Positions 3,364-9,005 of a stretch of 12,896 nucleotides of DNA are shown here, piece after piece. The notes below the pieces were generated by a model. It was not told the origin of the DNA. It searched no databases and was given only the letters and a program-made list of their open reading frames with translations. The translations under genes were made by a program, and so were the position numbers. The stretch is from a virus. How positions within the stretch are numbered: position 1 is the stretch's first letter; every line of letters starts with the position of its first letter. The DNA lies in the UHGV virus genome UHGV-0181219; one strand, 5' to 3'.

Positions 3364-4164
3364 TTAGTACGGGAGTTCTTCCTGAGCTTCACGAATGCGT
3401 TCAGATACCCACTCCTTGAACGTTGTCCAGTTAGGTACTGTTTTCGCAAACTCAGTAAGTTCATCGAGATCTAAGTCGTATGAAAGCCATGCCTTGAGAT
3501 AACTCATTACATGGTTTTGATTGATATATATGCGGTTTTTAAGGATTCCTCTGATGTATAGAATCCTTTGTTCTTTTGGCGGTTTTCTTTTTGTCGCTGC
3601 TATGCGAGGGATGTACTCAAAGAATTCACCAGTAAGCTCATGGGTTATTTCTTGGGTGAGTTTTTTGTCTGCAGCAATCTCAATCGCATCGAGTATTTCT
3701 TCAAGCTTATATATTCGAAGCCATCTCTTGATAGATTTTCGCCCATTGTCATTAACAGTAAATGGCGCAATGCAGTCGTCAATTTTGGTAGCGACAATAT
3801 CAACAACATCGTCTTTCAGGCTCTTAAGACCATCTCGCCACTTGATCATCATCTCCAGTTGCTCTCGCTTGGTATTAAGTTCCTGGAGTTGCTGCCTTTG
3901 CTTTTCCATTATTGAATTATCGCTGAGCAGTTTGTCTCTTTTCCCGCCATTACAACTATCGCAAGAAGTAATAAGGTTCATCATGTCGTTATCGCCACCC
4001 TTGCTAACTGGGTTGATATGGTCGACATGAAGGATGACGTCTGGCGCAGAACTCCCACAGTACTGGCATTTGAAGCCATCGCGCTTGAAAACCTCAAACC
4101 GTATTTTCTTGGTAATGCCGGAACGAATCTTTTTTACCTGGTCTGGTGTAGGTTTTTTTGCCAT
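3364..4164 (-). CDS. HNH endonuclease-domain protein with a C-terminal domain of unknown function
   Basis: Start set at the ATG at 4162-4164 (MAKKPTP...), which has GGAG 6 nt upstream. N-terminus has HNH signatures (CQYCGSS...HVDHINPVSKGG...NLITSCDSCN), then a coiled-coil-like stretch and about 150 aa that I do not recognise. Confidence 0.75.
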   Translation of the reverse strand: MAKKPTPDQVKKIRSGITKKIRFEVFKRDGFKCQYCGSSAPDVILHVDHINPVSKGGDNDMMNLITSCDSCNGGKRDKLLSDNSIMEKQRQQLQELNTKREQLEMMIKWRDGLKSLKDDVVDIVATKIDDCIAPFTVNDNGRKSIKRWLRIYKLEEILDAIEIAADKKLTQEITHELTGEFFEYIPRIAATKRKPPKEQRILYIRGILKNRIYINQNHVMSYLKAWLSYDLDLDELTEFAKTVPNWTTFKEWVSERIREAQEELPY

Positions 4165-4185
4165 AATTAACTCCATAGAAAGCAG

Positions 4186-4485
4186 TTAAAAATCCATCTG
4201 GATTTGTTCAGAACGCTCGGTCTTGCACACCGGGCGTTTTTTATTGGTGATTTCATCAAGCGCATACTTAAAAGCCCTGCTAATCGGACTGATGTCTGAT
4301 GCCATTCCGAAAGCACACAAGACCGAAGCAATAAATCTCCAGTCCGTTCTGCTTATCTTCGATTCATGACAGCCAATCATCTTTGCCAGACCGCGCTGTG
4401 TAAGCGTTGACAGGTTGATGAGTAAATCAGTTTCAGCGCGATCAATTTCTCGCTGTGTTGGCTTGCTGTAACTTGCTTGTGTCAT
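4186..4485 (-). CDS. cII: cII-type transcriptional activator
   Basis: C-terminus ...EITNKKRPVCKTERSEQIQMDF closely matches lambda CII (...ILTNKKRPAATERSEQIQMEF). An HTH region (TQRGLAKMIGCHESKISR) precedes it, and the position after cro and nutR fits. Confidence 0.85.
   Translation of the reverse strand: MTQASYSKPTQREIDRAETDLLINLSTLTQRGLAKMIGCHESKISRTDWRFIASVLCAFGMASDISPISRAFKYALDEITNKKRPVCKTERSEQIQMDF
4214..4242 (+). terminator. Plus-strand rho-independent terminator antisense to the 3' end of cII (OOP-like)
   Basis: 8-bp stem CGCTCGGT/ACCGGGCG (4214-4221 and 4229-4236, one G-U pair), 7-nt loop, then TTTTTT at 4237-4242. It sits inside the cII coding region on the opposite strand. Confidence 0.5.
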
Positions 4486-4568: not shown

Positions 4569-4583
4569 CTCGCTTTGTCAGCG
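4569..4583 (-). promoter_or_regulatory. nutR boxB-like hairpin (GACAA pentaloop)
   Basis: The minus-strand RNA reads UCGCU-GACAA-AGCGA, a 5-bp stem with the same GACAA loop as the nutL hairpin at 7562-7576. It lies between cro and cII. A boxA-like CGCTATTTT occurs about 23 nt upstream on the transcript (4607-4615 region). Confidence 0.5.
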
Positions 4584-4622
4584 ACGTAGGACGAATGTCC
4601 ATTGTGAAAATAGCGGTGTTAT

Positions 4623-4850
4623 TTATGCAGCCAGAAGGTTCTTTTTGCTTATTTCAAGCATTTCGCTTGCTTGATATTTGCCACCAGAAATCTCTTCGAT
4701 TTTTGATGCGTATTTCGTTTTCCCAAAAAACTCAGTCTTAGGGAGGAAGCCGTTTTTGAGCCACTTATAGACAGCCCTTTCGCTAACTCCACAAGCCTTC
4801 GCAACTTCAGGGATGCCGACACCTTTAATCGGCTCATCAAGATTTTGCAT
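4623..4850 (-). CDS. cro: Cro-like HTH repressor
   Basis: Divergent from cI across an operator-rich spacer. The product has an HTH (GIPEVAKACGVSERAVYKWLKNG). Start set at the internal ATG (MQNLDEP...) so that a 78-bp divergent promoter region remains; the longer start at 4883 is possible. Confidence 0.6.
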   Translation of the reverse strand: MQNLDEPIKGVGIPEVAKACGVSERAVYKWLKNGFLPKTEFFGKTKYASKIEEISGGKYQASEMLEISKKNLLAA

Positions 4851-4865
4851 AGGGATATCCTTTTT

Positions 4866-4927
4866 CGTACTTTCAGTACGCATTATGATTGAACTGAAAG
4901 TTTTTGCAAGTGCTTTAGTATCGTACT
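4866..4927. promoter_or_regulatory. OR-like operator cluster with divergent PR/PRM region
   Basis: Near-palindrome CGTACTTTCAGTACG at 4866-4880. Its core ACTTTCAGT (4870-4878) recurs inverted as ACTGAAAGT at 4893-4901. A third palindrome AGTATCGTACT lies at 4917-4927. Centres are about 23-25 bp apart. Confidence 0.4.
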
Positions 4928-4928
4928 C

Positions 4929-5636
4929 ATGGTTCAGAATGAAAAAGTGCGCAAAGAATTCGCCCAGCGGCTAGCGCAAGCCTGTAAAGAAGCTGGTCTT
5001 GATGAACATGGTAGGGGAATGGCTATAGCCCGTGCCCTTTCTCTTTCGTCCAAAGGCGTTAGCAAATGGTTTAATGCTGAGTCTTTACCGCGTCAGGAAA
5101 AAATGAATGCGCTTGCGAAATTTCTAAACGTTGATGTTGTTTGGCTTCAGCACGGCACTTCGTTAAATGGAGCGAATGATGAAGATACTCTTTCATTTGT
5201 TGGCAAATTAAAAAAAGGGTTAGTGCGCGTGGTTGGTGAGGCAATTCTTGGTGTTGATGGTGCCATCGAGATGACCGAAGAGCGCGATGGGTGGCTCAAG
5301 ATTTATAGCGATGATCCAGATGCCTTTGGTCTTCGTGTGAAAGGAGACAGCATGTGGCCCAGAATAAAATCAGGAGAATATGTACTCATTGAGCCTAACA
5401 CCAAAGTATTCCCGGGTGATGAGGTGTTTGTCAGAACCGTTGAAGGACACAACATGATTAAGGTTCTTGGCTATGACAGAGATGGAGAATACCAATTTAC
5501 AAGCATTAACCAGGACCACAGGCCTATAACGTTGCCTTATCATCAAGTAGCAAAGGTGGAGTATGTGGCTGGTATTCTGAAGCAATCTCGCCATCTGGAT
5601 GACATCGAGGCAAGGGAGTGGCTGAAAAATTCGTGA
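4929..5636 (+). CDS. cI: cI-type prophage repressor (HTH plus LexA-like S24 autopeptidase)
   Basis: N-terminal HTH region and a C-terminal S24 signature (GDSMWPRIKSGEYVLIEP ... MIKVL). No SD precedes the ATG, consistent with a leaderless PRM transcript as in lambda cI. Confidence 0.85.
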   Translation: MVQNEKVRKEFAQRLAQACKEAGLDEHGRGMAIARALSLSSKGVSKWFNAESLPRQEKMNALAKFLNVDVVWLQHGTSLNGANDEDTLSFVGKLKKGLVRVVGEAILGVDGAIEMTEERDGWLKIYSDDPDAFGLRVKGDSMWPRIKSGEYVLIEPNTKVFPGDEVFVRTVEGHNMIKVLGYDRDGEYQFTSINQDHRPITLPYHQVAKVEYVAGILKQSRHLDDIEAREWLKNS

Positions 5637-5836
5637 CTTCATCGTCACATAGCTGGTAGCCAGTGGCCAGAAGAGACGTTTGGCTGATCGGCAAGGTGTT
5701 CTGGTCGGCGCATAGCTGGTGAAAAAATTATTTAATGCGGTGTATTGGCTGATTGTAACCCCATGTAACATCTTGCCGTCACCATTTCGGTGGTTAGATT
5801 TTTAATAAAAAAAACAAATGTATAGCAAGGTTTTTT

Positions 5837-6316
5837 ATGGATAAAATTAATTACCCACCCCTGTTTGAGCCAGGGTTCCATGACATGGATGAAGCTGGAT
5901 TAAAATCGTATTGTGTCGATTGCTTTCCTTCATCATCCAGGCGAGGCATGCTATACTGTAATTTTATACAGCTACTCGAATCTATTCGAGAATTATCTGC
6001 TCAATATGGCTGTTTTACAGAAATATGGGTTGATGGTTCATACACCACGTCTAAACCAGAGCCTGATGATATTGATATTTTGTTGGTATGTGACTATAGC
6101 AATATAAACTCAATACCTGTCATGCTTCGGGGCCGCGTCGATAATTTGCTTGACCGAAACTACATCAAACAAAACTACAAAATTGATGTCCTACTACTCA
6201 TGAAGAATTTAGATGACCCTAACTATGATTATGAGTACTGGCGTAGCTACTGGCGCGGTTGGTTTGGTTTTGATCGCAGTGAAAACCCGAAAGGGTTAGT
6301 GAGGATTTTTTTATGA
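5837..6316 (+). CDS. Minimal nucleotidyltransferase (pol-beta-fold, MNT/SMODS-like), first gene of the candidate defence cassette
   Basis: 159-aa product with the pol-beta NTase signature: helix RELSAQYG, then G67-S68, D78-I-D80 (DIDILLV) and D117 (KIDVLLL). Its stop overlaps the next start (ATGA at 6313-6316). Confidence 0.7.
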   Translation: MDKINYPPLFEPGFHDMDEAGLKSYCVDCFPSSSRRGMLYCNFIQLLESIRELSAQYGCFTEIWVDGSYTTSKPEPDDIDILLVCDYSNINSIPVMLRGRVDNLLDRNYIKQNYKIDVLLLMKNLDDPNYDYEYWRSYWRGWFGFDRSENPKGLVRIFL

Positions 6317-7245
6317 ATGATAAATCAATGTTTAAAAATTGCGATAAACGCATTGATTTCATTCAAAAAGAAGTCGATGCAATGAAGCAAAACAAAACCA
6401 GGTCCTTTGCTGACATGCTTCTTTATCGCTCCATGGATTCTCATCTGAGCGATTTGAAGGCCGAAAAATTAAAGCAAGATAGTCGGCACCCACTTATCGA
6501 TTTTTTTGAGCTGCGGCTGAAAGGCTCTGAGGTTGACTTTGGCTCTATTCCTTTAGAGCTGCTTGGGGCTATTTCAACAAATCTTGCAGCGCTAATACAA
6601 AGAGCAACACACAAAATTGCCTCAGGCAAGGACTCAAAAAAAGTTCCCTACGACGTGAAAAGCTCCTTAAACCTCAGGCTGGCTGATTTATCCCCTGGGT
6701 CTACAAAATTGGGCGTCACCTTCTCTACAGGAATAGCAGAATTAGTAGAAACAGTACCCAGCAAGGCTGTAAAAGGCATATTCGATTTGTTGTTAAGCGA
6801 TGACGACAACAACTTCATGAATCACGTCGCTGAAATTGGATACAATTCCACTGTAAGCCTTAAGAGAATCGTAGAGGAATGCGATAAACACAACTTAACA
6901 TTTGATGCAAGTTGGACCGGTCCATTTAGTAATGGCACCAAGGTGGCAACTATTGACTCCAATAAAATTAAGTACTTGGTGAGTAGACTTACATCAACCA
7001 TTTCATCCCCTCCCATTACTGAAACGGTTACAGGCGAACTGGTCGTTCTATCCAAATATGGGAAGCTGGAGCTTGATGTTGGTGGTGAACATTTAAAGGC
7101 TTCCTATCCGATTGAAATGCTAGATTTAATACAAAAAAAACACAAGGTCGGACAGATTGTTTCTCTTTTAGTGGAGACTACTGAGATTCACAATGATCGC
7201 ATAGGTCTGTACCGTAAAAACCATCTTGTTAAATCGGTTCTTTAA
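6313..7245 (+). CDS. Hypothetical 310-aa protein, partner of the nucleotidyltransferase
   Basis: GAGGA RBS 7 nt upstream, translationally coupled to the NTase gene. I recognise no family; no convincing transmembrane segment. An R39-x4-H44 motif near the N-terminus is noted without weight. Confidence 0.7.
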   Translation: MNDKSMFKNCDKRIDFIQKEVDAMKQNKTRSFADMLLYRSMDSHLSDLKAEKLKQDSRHPLIDFFELRLKGSEVDFGSIPLELLGAISTNLAALIQRATHKIASGKDSKKVPYDVKSSLNLRLADLSPGSTKLGVTFSTGIAELVETVPSKAVKGIFDLLLSDDDNNFMNHVAEIGYNSTVSLKRIVEECDKHNLTFDASWTGPFSNGTKVATIDSNKIKYLVSRLTSTISSPPITETVTGELVVLSKYGKLELDVGGEHLKASYPIEMLDLIQKKHKVGQIVSLLVETTEIHNDRIGLYRKNHLVKSVL

Positions 7246-7252
7246 TATCTCA

Positions 7253-7278
7253 CCCGGCCACCGAGCCGGGTTTTTTTT
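7253..7278 (+). terminator. Rho-independent terminator closing the cI-cassette transcription unit
   Basis: Stem CCCGGC/GCCGGG (7253-7258 and 7265-7270), 6-nt loop, then TTTTTTTT at 7271-7278, starting 8 nt after the stop codon. Confidence 0.7.
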
Positions 7279-7452
7279 GCCTCTCGATCCCCCACCTAAA
7301 AACACATAACCAATTGTATTTATTGATGTAACTCGCTAAACCATGCAGTTCTGATCCCTGCCGCATAACCTTCATCAGCCACATTTTCAAAAATAAATTT
7401 CCTTATATATCATAATCATACTTCGTAGAGTTAATAAATCACCAAAATTCGT

Positions 7453-7485
7453 ACCAATAGTTCTTGATAATGTCGAACTATTGGT
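7453..7485. promoter_or_regulatory. 33-bp inverted repeat overlapping the putative PL -35; OL-like operator or other regulator site
   Basis: Perfect 11-bp arms ACCAATAGTTC (7453-7463) and GAACTATTGGT (7475-7485) around an 11-bp spacer that contains TTGATA (7464-7469). CATTAT lies 17 bp downstream at 7487-7492. Confidence 0.35.
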
Positions 7486-7561
7486 TCATTATTATCATCA
7501 TCAGCAGGACGCATTACTCACCATGGCGGTGAATATACAACGATTCAAACATGAATCTACG

Positions 7562-7576
7562 GCGCTGACAAAGCGC
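7562..7576 (+). promoter_or_regulatory. nutL boxB hairpin (P22-type)
   Basis: GCGCTGACAAAGCGC: 5-bp GC-rich stem with a GACAA pentaloop, matching the P22 nutL boxB as I recall it. It lies about 130 nt upstream of the N start. Confidence 0.6.
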
Positions 7577-7704
7577 AATAACCAAAGTGAACTTTGGGGT
7601 GAATGCAGAAGCTAATCTTCTCGGCGGAGGCGCTTTGCAATGATTACGCGACCGGAGTTAGTCGCCCGGCTGTATTCACCGCCAAAGTTCACCAGGAGGT
7701 CTAT

Positions 7705-8088
7705 ATGACACGCAGAACTCAGTTCAAAGGCAATTCACGTTCTCGTCGTCGTGAGCGTTTAAAGGCAAAGGCATTAGCTAACGGCGTACTGGCCCGCGAA
7801 GAAGCAATAAGTTCAGAAGTATTACACCGCCCTACTCTAAGCAGAGCGCAGATTCAGGCTAAAGGTACTCACGAAACGCCTGAGCGCATAGAAGACGCTA
7901 AGCCAATTAAGTTCATGGCACAGGACGTGATCTGGCAACAGAAAGAATACAGACGCAATCTGGAGAGAGCGGCCATTGTGTACGCGAATGAGTTTGGACA
8001 TAAGCAACCAGAAACTGGTGTATGTCTTCCAAATGTAGCTCTTTACGCGGCAGGCTACCGGAAATCAAAACAACTGACAGCGAGGTAA
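7705..8088 (+). CDS. N: N-type transcription antitermination protein (P22 gp24-like)
   Basis: Start at the ATG at 7705-7707, with AGGAGG 5 nt upstream. Arginine-rich motif near the N-terminus (NSRSRRRERLKAKA). C-terminus ...LPNVALYAAGYRKSKQLTAR closely matches P22 gp24 (...LPGVALYAAGHRKSKQITAR). Confidence 0.85.
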   Translation: MTRRTQFKGNSRSRRRERLKAKALANGVLAREEAISSEVLHRPTLSRAQIQAKGTHETPERIEDAKPIKFMAQDVIWQQKEYRRNLERAAIVYANEFGHKQPETGVCLPNVALYAAGYRKSKQLTAR

Positions 8089-8091
8089 GTG

Positions 8092-8316
8092 ATGAATCAG
8101 ACATACATTCCATCATGCTTGAGAAATCTGCCAAAGCAGAAAGCAAAGCCCCGCAAGCAAGCCATAAAGGACGCTAAGGCAGAGGTTATTGATCAAGCAA
8201 TACAATTGCTCAGGGAGGAGTTAAGAAGTGGCAAGCTCGAAGGAATGATGATGCCCTATCAGCGCGGATATCTATCGGCGATTAGTAAGTTGGAAGTATT
8301 GAAGAGTGAATTATGA
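8092..8316 (+). CDS. Hypothetical early-left protein (74 aa)
   Basis: ATG at 8092-8094 with GAGGTAAG upstream. Stop overlaps the next start (ATGA at 8313-8316). No family recognised. Confidence 0.5.
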   Translation: MNQTYIPSCLRNLPKQKAKPRKQAIKDAKAEVIDQAIQLLREELRSGKLEGMMMPYQRGYLSAISKLEVLKSEL

Positions 8317-9005
8317 ACTATCTGGAATTTCCGGATGGTTCATTGTTTTGGCAGCAAACCACTTATTTGAGAGGAATTAATATGTCATCAATCCGCTTAA
8401 CTACGAGAATGAAAGAGAAAATCGCTCGTAACGCTTTAATTAAGTCTGGGGTTTTCGCTGAACTTGAAGAAGTAACAAAGTTAAAGAACCAGCTTGCACT
8501 TGACGCCAGAGTTATTGCGTTTGGCGGTAAAAAGAAAACTGAGGAAGTGGATCAGTTATCATCCAGGTTAGTAGCTATAAGTGAAGAACTTGAAAAGATG
8601 GGATGTTCATTTTACTCATGCGATGTTCGTTCTACTTCAATTTATCTGACTGTATCTGGCAGAAGGGTTGGATGGCTTTCATATGGGAAAGACGGCAACG
8701 GCGAAGATATATTGCTCCCTACTCCGACCAAAGATAAATGCATGTTTGACGCAGAACACGAAATAACAAAAAGGTTTGATGAAATCTGCGCATTGCAACA
8801 AAAACTTGAAGCCAAGAAAAAGGATATCGAATCAAATGTATGGGCTGCTTTGAACTCAGTCACAACAGTTAAGCGACTTATTGAAGTTTGGCCTGAAAGC
8901 AAAGAATTGCTACCAAAAGAAGCAGATAAAGCAAGTACAGCACTTCCTGCTTTACGGGTAGAAGATTTGAATAAGATGATTGGACTTCCTTCCGAGGCCG
9001 CATAG
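8313..9005 (+). CDS. Hypothetical early-left protein (230 aa)
   Basis: Long ORF coupled to the upstream gene. An alternative start at the ATG at 8382-8384 (MSSIRLT...) with a GAGG RBS is also plausible. No family recognised. Confidence 0.6.
   Translation: MNYLEFPDGSLFWQQTTYLRGINMSSIRLTTRMKEKIARNALIKSGVFAELEEVTKLKNQLALDARVIAFGGKKKTEEVDQLSSRLVAISEELEKMGCSFYSCDVRSTSIYLTVSGRRVGWLSYGKDGNGEDILLPTPTKDKCMFDAEHEITKRFDEICALQQKLEAKKKDIESNVWAALNSVTTVKRLIEVWPESKELLPKEADKASTALPALRVEDLNKMIGLPSEAA

Follow-up and report, generated by a model that had tools for sequence, protein, structure and literature searches.

The question raised by UHGV virus genome UHGV-0181219 is what a lambdoid phage carries directly behind cI when the place held by rexAB in phage lambda is taken by other genes, and whether such genes act in conflicts with other phages. 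The window, that is, the whole stretch of 12,896 nucleotides (nt) that was analysed, is the early/immunity region of a lambdoid phage, in which cI is followed by a gene for a small nucleotidyltransferase (gene A) and a gene for a larger partner (gene B; Table 1). A sequence-only reading of the window had taken this pair for an undescribed exclusion module and had suggested profile searches and a PADLOC check, and these found the pair to be catalogued. Judged by profile matches and sequence identity, it is the PADLOC candidate PDC-M63 and is identical in sequence to known phage genes, so that "undescribed" was wrong. The reading put forward here is that the pair is a PDC-M63 instance carried as accessory cargo in the rexAB slot, where it would serve as a lysogen-expressed conflict module driven by its nucleotidyltransferase; a probability of about 0.5 is given to this reading.

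The protein of gene A matches the PADLOC PDC-M63A model PDLC04744 with an expectation value (E) of 1.8e-41 (residues 1-158 on model positions 1-148 of 152), and that of gene B matches the PDC-M63B model PDLC04749 with E 7.5e-45 (residues 23-304 on 20-300 of 309), while five more M63B models also match gene B. With both proteins matching end to end from adjacent genes on the same strand, the locus is a member of PDC-M63 showing no structural difference from it. Gene A is also phrog_9194 in PHROGs and belongs to Pfam DUF6932 (PF22014; E 1.7e-24; 87.3 bits, where the cut-off is 27; residues 8-157 on 7-141 of 142). Gene B, in which the sequence-only reading could recognise no family, indeed has none in Pfam or NCBIfam, but it is phrog_6603 besides matching PDC-M63B. 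Moreover, both proteins are 100% identical to those of phage mEpX1, and a phage genome deposited in 2012 carries the pair. PDC-M63 is one of 145 PADLOC phage defence candidates proposed through "guilt-by-embedding" by Payne, Hughes, Fineran and Jackson (bioRxiv 10.1101/2024.01.29.577857), who chose them for being embedded in BREX (bacteriophage exclusion), DISARM (defence island system associated with restriction-modification) or type I restriction-modification (RM) systems and stated that they were untested. Literature searches on DUF6932, on the protein accessions and on the 2025 mEpX1 and PhiR30_1 GenBank records returned nothing relevant, a search combining nucleotidyltransferase, OB fold and anti-phage returned nothing, and by their titles and abstracts none of the mEpX1 papers listed concerns gene A or gene B.

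The position of the pair had been recognised correctly from the sequence, with two coupled genes on the cI strand lying after cI and before PL, nutL and N, at the locus equivalent to rexAB. On the left, positions 5657-5718 share 96.8% identity with lambda 37257-37196, which holds the last codons of lambda cI and the start of the cI-rexA spacer. On the right, positions 7252-7326 share 86.7% identity with lambda 35825-35754, beginning at the last base of rexB and spanning the terminator. Because lambda homology is found on both flanks, the cargo at 5719-7251 replaces precisely rexA and rexB, and a PL-like promoter, PL +1 homology and boxB (7464-7575) mark the end of the slot. As for the strong terminator that was said to close the cassette, its stem and T8 run are present, but it is homologous to the lambda terminator after rexB and is a property of the slot; a cassette-specific strong terminator was rejected. 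The left boundary also holds what is left of a lambda-type cI 3' end, non-coding here (5657-5687), which reads SQWPEETFG-stop 21 nt past the stop of the resident cI (5636), while in mEpX1 this sequence is the genuine end of cI. Since the resident cI already stops upstream of it, this segment is a recombination relic, and it marks a junction at which the immunity gene was exchanged and the cassette kept. Such a clean swap of a cassette for rexAB between conserved lambda flanks shows that accessory cargo is exchanged at this slot.

The likeness to lambda RexAB is one of place and arrangement. Both cassettes extend from the 3' end of cI to the terminator upstream of OL/PL between homologous flanks, and both consist of two genes on the cI strand, which makes expression together with the repressor probable. 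The two cassettes are nevertheless unrelated in sequence, and homology to RexA or RexB was rejected, as neither gene A nor gene B has a Rex family match in Pfam, PHROGs or PADLOC and gene B has no membrane-spanning segment. RexB is a polytopic membrane protein and Rex has no nucleotidyltransferase, whereas the gene B protein lacks any membrane segment, as the sequence-only reading had noted (the maximum of the 19-residue Kyte-Doolittle profile is 1.38). Exclusion cargo is also carried in rexAB-type slots by other lambdoid phages, such as stk in 933W and bstA in BTP1.

Genes A and B share a 4-nt ATGA overlap with a GAGG 8 nt upstream of the gene B ATG, and they are translationally coupled. A spacer of 200 nt separates the gene A ATG from cI, which is on the same strand. 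The start codons of both genes are called correctly, since both N-termini line up with those of their homologues. In all seven lambdoid loci compared, the pair lies 3' of a cI-type repressor on the same strand, mostly directly adjacent to it and then with cI-to-A spacers of 45-286 nt; it was found behind cI in E. coli (two alleles) and in Providencia and Erwinia phages. In one Providencia prophage (locus L003, 4969-5466), a 44-amino-acid (aa) open reading frame (ORF) and a DUF3024 gene are inserted between cI and the pair, and the slot can therefore take stacked cargo.

The cassette DNA is near-intact in 17 of 5426 complete E. coli genomes, and a second E. coli allele with about 55-62% aa identity is present in 96 further genomes. 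Identical A and B follow three different cI alleles, with identities between alleles as low as 24%. The A-then-B module moves independently of the cI immunity type and behaves as mobile accessory cargo. The module was also found in Enterobacterales, Flavobacteriia, Desulfuromusa and metagenomic contigs, with gene B identities of just 21-28% in the last three, and it is kept together across phyla. With a single exception, each distinct context examined has a DUF6932 gene and, directly after it, a gene B homologue of 306-325 aa, mostly with an overlap of 4-14 nt, and the homology of distant partners to gene B was shown directly at three loci (L008, L010 and L011). The gene B family comprises 870 representatives at 50% clustering (E up to 1e-3), and nearly all of the best 150 of these are 300-325 aa long. 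The exceptional context (locus L022, 1827-3902) has a DUF6932 gene without the 310-aa partner; upstream of it are a 65-aa ORF and a 360-aa protein that weakly matches a RES domain, which may represent an alternative partner architecture.

The pol-beta active site read from the sequence (G67-S68, D78-x-D80 and D117) was confirmed in 42 gene A homologues, down to 33% identity, in which G67, S68, D78 and D80 are invariant and D117 is conserved in at least 90%. Gene A accordingly keeps the complete pol-beta nucleotidyltransferase active site, namely hG[GS], [DE]h[DE]h and the third carboxylate. Also invariant in these homologues are G13, R36, K73, P76 and most of the C-terminal RSYWRGWFGF helix (136-145), which with GFH at 13-15 makes up the extra invariant motifs of gene A. 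The AlphaFold model of the protein has a predicted local distance difference test score (pLDDT) of 96.4, and its best Protein Data Bank (PDB) folds in Foldseek are all nucleotidyltransferases (2rff, MNT antitoxins, CdnC and pol beta), although the matches are weak (E from 3.7e-3, template-modelling score (TM) 0.27-0.36). The small MNT- or SMODS-like scaffold proposed earlier agrees with this, MNT antitoxins and CdnC being the nearest folds, and in the top matches the MNT antitoxin is in complex with AMPylated HEPN (7ae2, 7ae9, 8xeh and 7bxo). The match to Pfam DNA_pol_B_palm is 14.5 bits, below the threshold of 25 bits, and a PDB profile search gave weak pol beta matches at E of about 0.3. As a family, gene A proteins are acidic, with a median isoelectric point (pI) of 5.0.

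The gene B protein, modelled with a pLDDT of 80.5, is predicted to consist of a coiled-coil N-terminus forming a helical hairpin (residues ~10-56), an alpha/beta domain to which no known fold was matched (~61-232) and a C-terminal oligonucleotide/oligosaccharide-binding (OB) fold (~235-309). The C-terminal part is modelled as a closed barrel of five beta strands and can be superposed on known OB folds, while the hairpin gave coiled-coil-type noise matches only. Searches of Pfam with 38 and with 23 gene B family members, at E up to 10, gave scattered coiled-coil noise only; PDB profile searches with gene B found nothing, and Foldseek against the PDB found no significant match for its N-terminal and central parts. 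A class III cyclase fold and a Cas10-like fold were not accepted (probability below 0.5, TM about 0.2). The residues invariant throughout the family are R68, G71, G77, P80, L81, G105, R122, L123, G129, S130, T131, W201, S247 and N294. Gene B looks non-catalytic, since no conserved acidic or histidine set is found among its family; the invariant S130 and T131 lie in a low-confidence loop of the model. With a median pI of 6.5 the OB domain is not basic, and few basic or aromatic residues are conserved in it (K251, K278, R301 and Y265). Conservation in gene B is highest in residues 62-146 (window 6496-6750), a block with a partial, weak match to the N-terminus of PDC-M32A (E 3.4e-05), another untested PADLOC candidate, which suggests a mobile domain shared by the two. 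Gene B thereby gains a first structural outline, a coiled coil, an alpha/beta domain with invariant Arg and Ser/Thr and an OB fold, which gives concrete targets for mutation.

How such a pair might work can be outlined as follows. In the lysogen, A and B would be transcribed together with cI, as rexAB is, given the analogy of position and the short spacers between cI and gene A, and cI is the likely source of read-through transcription into the pair. The pair would act as a conflict module, either excluding other phages or serving as a toxin-antitoxin-like abortive switch. Such a role is suggested by its PADLOC candidate listing and by its surroundings, which include a type I RM system with SIR2, YoeB/Phd together with type I RM, an integrase island with ParDE, and a Serratia satellite-like element; in one distant context, the pair also stands beside a large DUF4011 helicase. 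Gene A would be the sole enzyme, and gene B a non-catalytic, probably oligomeric partner. The favoured mechanism resembles that of type VII HEPN/MNT systems, in that the upstream gene A would restrain the downstream gene B by nucleotidylation, with S130 and T131 as candidate acceptor sites; infection would then break the control of gene A over gene B, which is the weakest step. This mechanism is preferred because of the gene order and because MNT antitoxins are the nearest folds of gene A.

The HEPN/MNT systems (MntA/HepT; 7ae2, 7ae9, 7bxo, 6m6u and 8xeh) likewise place a minimal pol-beta nucleotidyltransferase first, with a coupled downstream partner, and MNT chains are the best structural matches of gene A. 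They differ in that gene A resembles MNT weakly (E 4e-3 to 0.1, TM ~0.3) and carries its extra invariant motifs. A HEPN partner was rejected, as gene B has no HEPN match in Pfam or PADLOC and no invariant Rx4-6H, and contains beta sheets and an OB barrel.

Several observations weigh against the conflict-module reading. Gene B is no HEPN protein and gives no sign of a toxic activity, and the fold matches of gene A, on which the MNT analogy draws, are weak (E ~4e-3, TM ~0.3). The non-basic OB domain and the acidic gene A protein fit neither plain nucleic-acid binding nor any particular alternative. In E. coli OkiPb01716 (locus L025, 1798-4461), an IS3 element separates A from B in the second E. 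coli allele and leaves both ORFs essentially intact. Uncoupling of the pair is therefore tolerated in this one strain, which mildly weakens a strict toxin/antitoxin coupling. The hairpin and T-run just upstream of gene A (5775-5794) could limit read-through from cI, and expression in the lysogen is a step that we infer. Finally, when PDC-M63AB was deleted from its prophage in the native host E. coli NILS69, efficiency of plating and liquid infection were unchanged for 10 virulent phages; the authors of that study remark on the narrowness of their phage panel. It is the only paper found that names PDC-M63, and no positive defence test was found. With the single published deletion test negative, the exclusion or defence role claimed from the sequence is still a prediction.

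Since gene A alone carries a catalytic signature, the roles of the two proteins might also be reversed, gene B being a sensor or specificity subunit and gene A an effector whose nucleotidylation of a target, for example the 3' ends of tRNA or the ends of phage DNA, arrests infection. The OB fold would in that case bind phage or host nucleic acid or protein, and the coiled coil would drive assembly. Nucleotidyltransferase toxins of the MenT type, which act on tRNA, are an established precedent. However, gene A is acidic (pI 5.0), and the nearly neutral OB domain keeps only a handful of basic or aromatic residues, unlike typical nucleic-acid binders; acidity in both proteins makes the nucleic-acid reading less likely, and gene A has no sequence or fold link to DUF1814/MenT. 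The AbiE and MenAT systems with DUF1814 toxins are, like the present pair, nucleotidyltransferase-based two-gene conflict modules on mobile elements, but gene A is half the size of their toxins and has no DUF1814/AbiEii match in Pfam or PADLOC, and its partner is not an AbiEi/COG5340 regulator. A reversal of roles is considered unlikely.

A nucleotide signal offers another route, in which gene A would make a small nucleotide or short oligonucleotide that is bound by gene B and either activates it, as in cyclic oligonucleotide-based antiphage signalling (CBASS), or restrains it, so that gene B would act once the signal is depleted or changed in infection. In Hailong and Panoptes, a nucleotide signal holds the partner inactive. 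The invariant R68, R122, S130, T131, T136 and T139 in the 62-146 block of gene B would be compatible with a phosphate-binding pocket, the occurrence of this block at the N-terminus of PDC-M32A is as expected for a mobile ligand-binding domain, and gene A has weak matches to cGAS/DncV-like nucleotidyltransferases (CD-NTases). A small accessory nucleotidyltransferase that restrains its partner is documented in Clover (CloB). Clover (CloAB) is an anti-phage system in which an accessory nucleotidyltransferase makes an inhibitory signal, and so are Hailong (HalAB) and Panoptes, which PMC12265719 cites. The resemblance lies in a two-gene operon of a small pol-beta-superfamily nucleotidyltransferase with [DE]h[DE] and a partner. 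The partners in these systems, in contrast, are a dGTPase (CloA), an ion channel (HalA) and a 2TM beta-barrel protein, none of which describes gene B, and CloB was placed downstream of CloA in the cloning constructs. No CloB or HalB chain is among the sequence or fold matches of gene A. At 159 aa, gene A also probably lacks the C-terminal helical acceptor-binding domain of CD-NTases, no killing domain, membrane segment, or SAVED, CARF or STING sensor fold can be recognised in gene B, and no PADLOC CBASS model is matched. Signalling of this kind is regarded as decidedly unlikely.

It is likewise improbable that the pair has no anti-phage role at all and is instead a selfish addiction or stabilisation module, a counter-defence function, or some other accessory rider in the variable slots of mobile elements. 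The sole experimental test, in NILS69, was negative, PDC-M63 was predicted purely from genomic embedding, and the chromosomal contexts L008, L017 and L018 have no clear defence neighbours. The negative test, however, covered just 10 virulent double-stranded DNA phages on one host, the pair recurs beside RM, SIR2 and toxin-antitoxin genes, and lambdoid phages use this slot for exclusion genes such as rexAB, stk and bstA. As for CBASS proper, it was rejected because no PADLOC CBASS model is matched, gene A has 159 aa against ~300 aa or more, the CdnC/CdnE matches are non-significant and gene B has no effector domain; CBASS, AbiE/MenT and any other named PADLOC system were equally set aside, since the PDC-M63 models alone were matched apart from the weak partial match of gene B to PDC-M32A.

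Within the reading of the pair as a conflict module, it is possible, though doubtful, that PDC-M63 is a genuine prophage exclusion system with an undescribed mode, in which a nucleotidyltransferase of ~150 aa controls or acts through a non-enzymatic partner built from a coiled coil, a new alpha/beta domain and an OB fold, and whose natural targets are temperate or lambdoid competitors, not the virulent phages used in the NILS69 test. The route would be nucleotidylation of the partner or a restraining nucleotide ligand. Because mEpX1 grows on E. coli K-12, this proposal is directly testable, and a K-12-infecting lambdoid phage that carries the pair offers a convenient system in which to test one of the 145 PADLOC candidates. 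If the pair does defend, its architecture would be unlike that of every nucleotidyltransferase-based system characterised so far.

Composition contributes little to the argument. The cassette has a GC content of 40.2%, compared with 45.5% in cI and 43.9% in the whole window, and falls in the lowest 2% of same-size windows, so that the cassette is AT-richer than cI as the sequence-only reading held; the 25-40% GC that it gave for 60-nt samples was overstated (27-50%, mean 41%). A strong compositional anomaly was rejected, the gap being just ~4-5 GC points. The description of the cassette as an acquired moron fits its mobile accessory behaviour, while the compositional argument for it is weak. 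An own promoter fared poorly as well: TTGCCG-16-TAGATT has 8 of 12 consensus positions and falls under the scan threshold, promoter-like sites were no commoner in the scan than in shuffled sequence, and the terminator-like hairpin with its T-run overlaps the candidate site. The leader that contains both is the same in mEpX1 and in the E. coli PM7 prophage and has no relation to lambda.

Table 1. Features of the window, in window coordinates.
Feature	Position	Strand	Remarks
Second HNH endonuclease gene (HNH_3)	91-678	minus	just past ninB, overlaps the ninB 5' end
ninB	615-1055	minus	
DnaC/IstB-like helicase loader gene	1617-2480	minus	
HNH endonuclease gene (HNH/HNH_5)	3364-4176	minus	between cII and the replication genes
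cII	4186-4485	minus	
nutR	4571-4589		inverted copy of nutL boxB, downstream of cro
cro-like helix-turn-helix gene	4623-4883	minus	
cI repressor gene	4929-5636	plus	Peptidase_S24 E 4.4e-16, HTH_3 E 1.2e-05
Cassette-specific leader	5719-5836	plus	hairpin 5775-5794, then T and A runs; TTGCCG-16-TAGATT 5773-5800; AAGG 6 nt before the gene A ATG
Gene A	5837-6316	plus	159 aa; DUF6932 minimal pol-beta-type nucleotidyltransferase, PDC-M63A
Gene B	6313-7245	plus	310-aa partner, PDC-M63B
Intrinsic terminator	7252-7278	plus	7-bp stem (7252-7271), 6 G-C pairs, then T8; terminator scan
PL-like promoter	7464-7492	plus	TTGATA-17-CATTAT
PL +1 homology to lambda	7499-7532	plus	
nutL boxB	7560-7574	plus	P22-type, GCGCTGACAAAGCGC; hairpin 7557-7575
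N-type antiterminator ORF	7603-8088	plus	match to the N peptide Pfam family
Nmad5 gene (nucleotide modification associated domain 5)	8313-9005	plus	230 aa, Pfam E 7.9e-71, just 3' of N
recT, ead/Ea22		plus	

An Rfam scan of the window found no family. The longest N ORF begins upstream of the arginine-rich motif, and the real start is probably M35 at 7705. Both HNH genes may be homing-type insertions. In addition, the Nmad5 gene may be extra accessory cargo in the PL operon.

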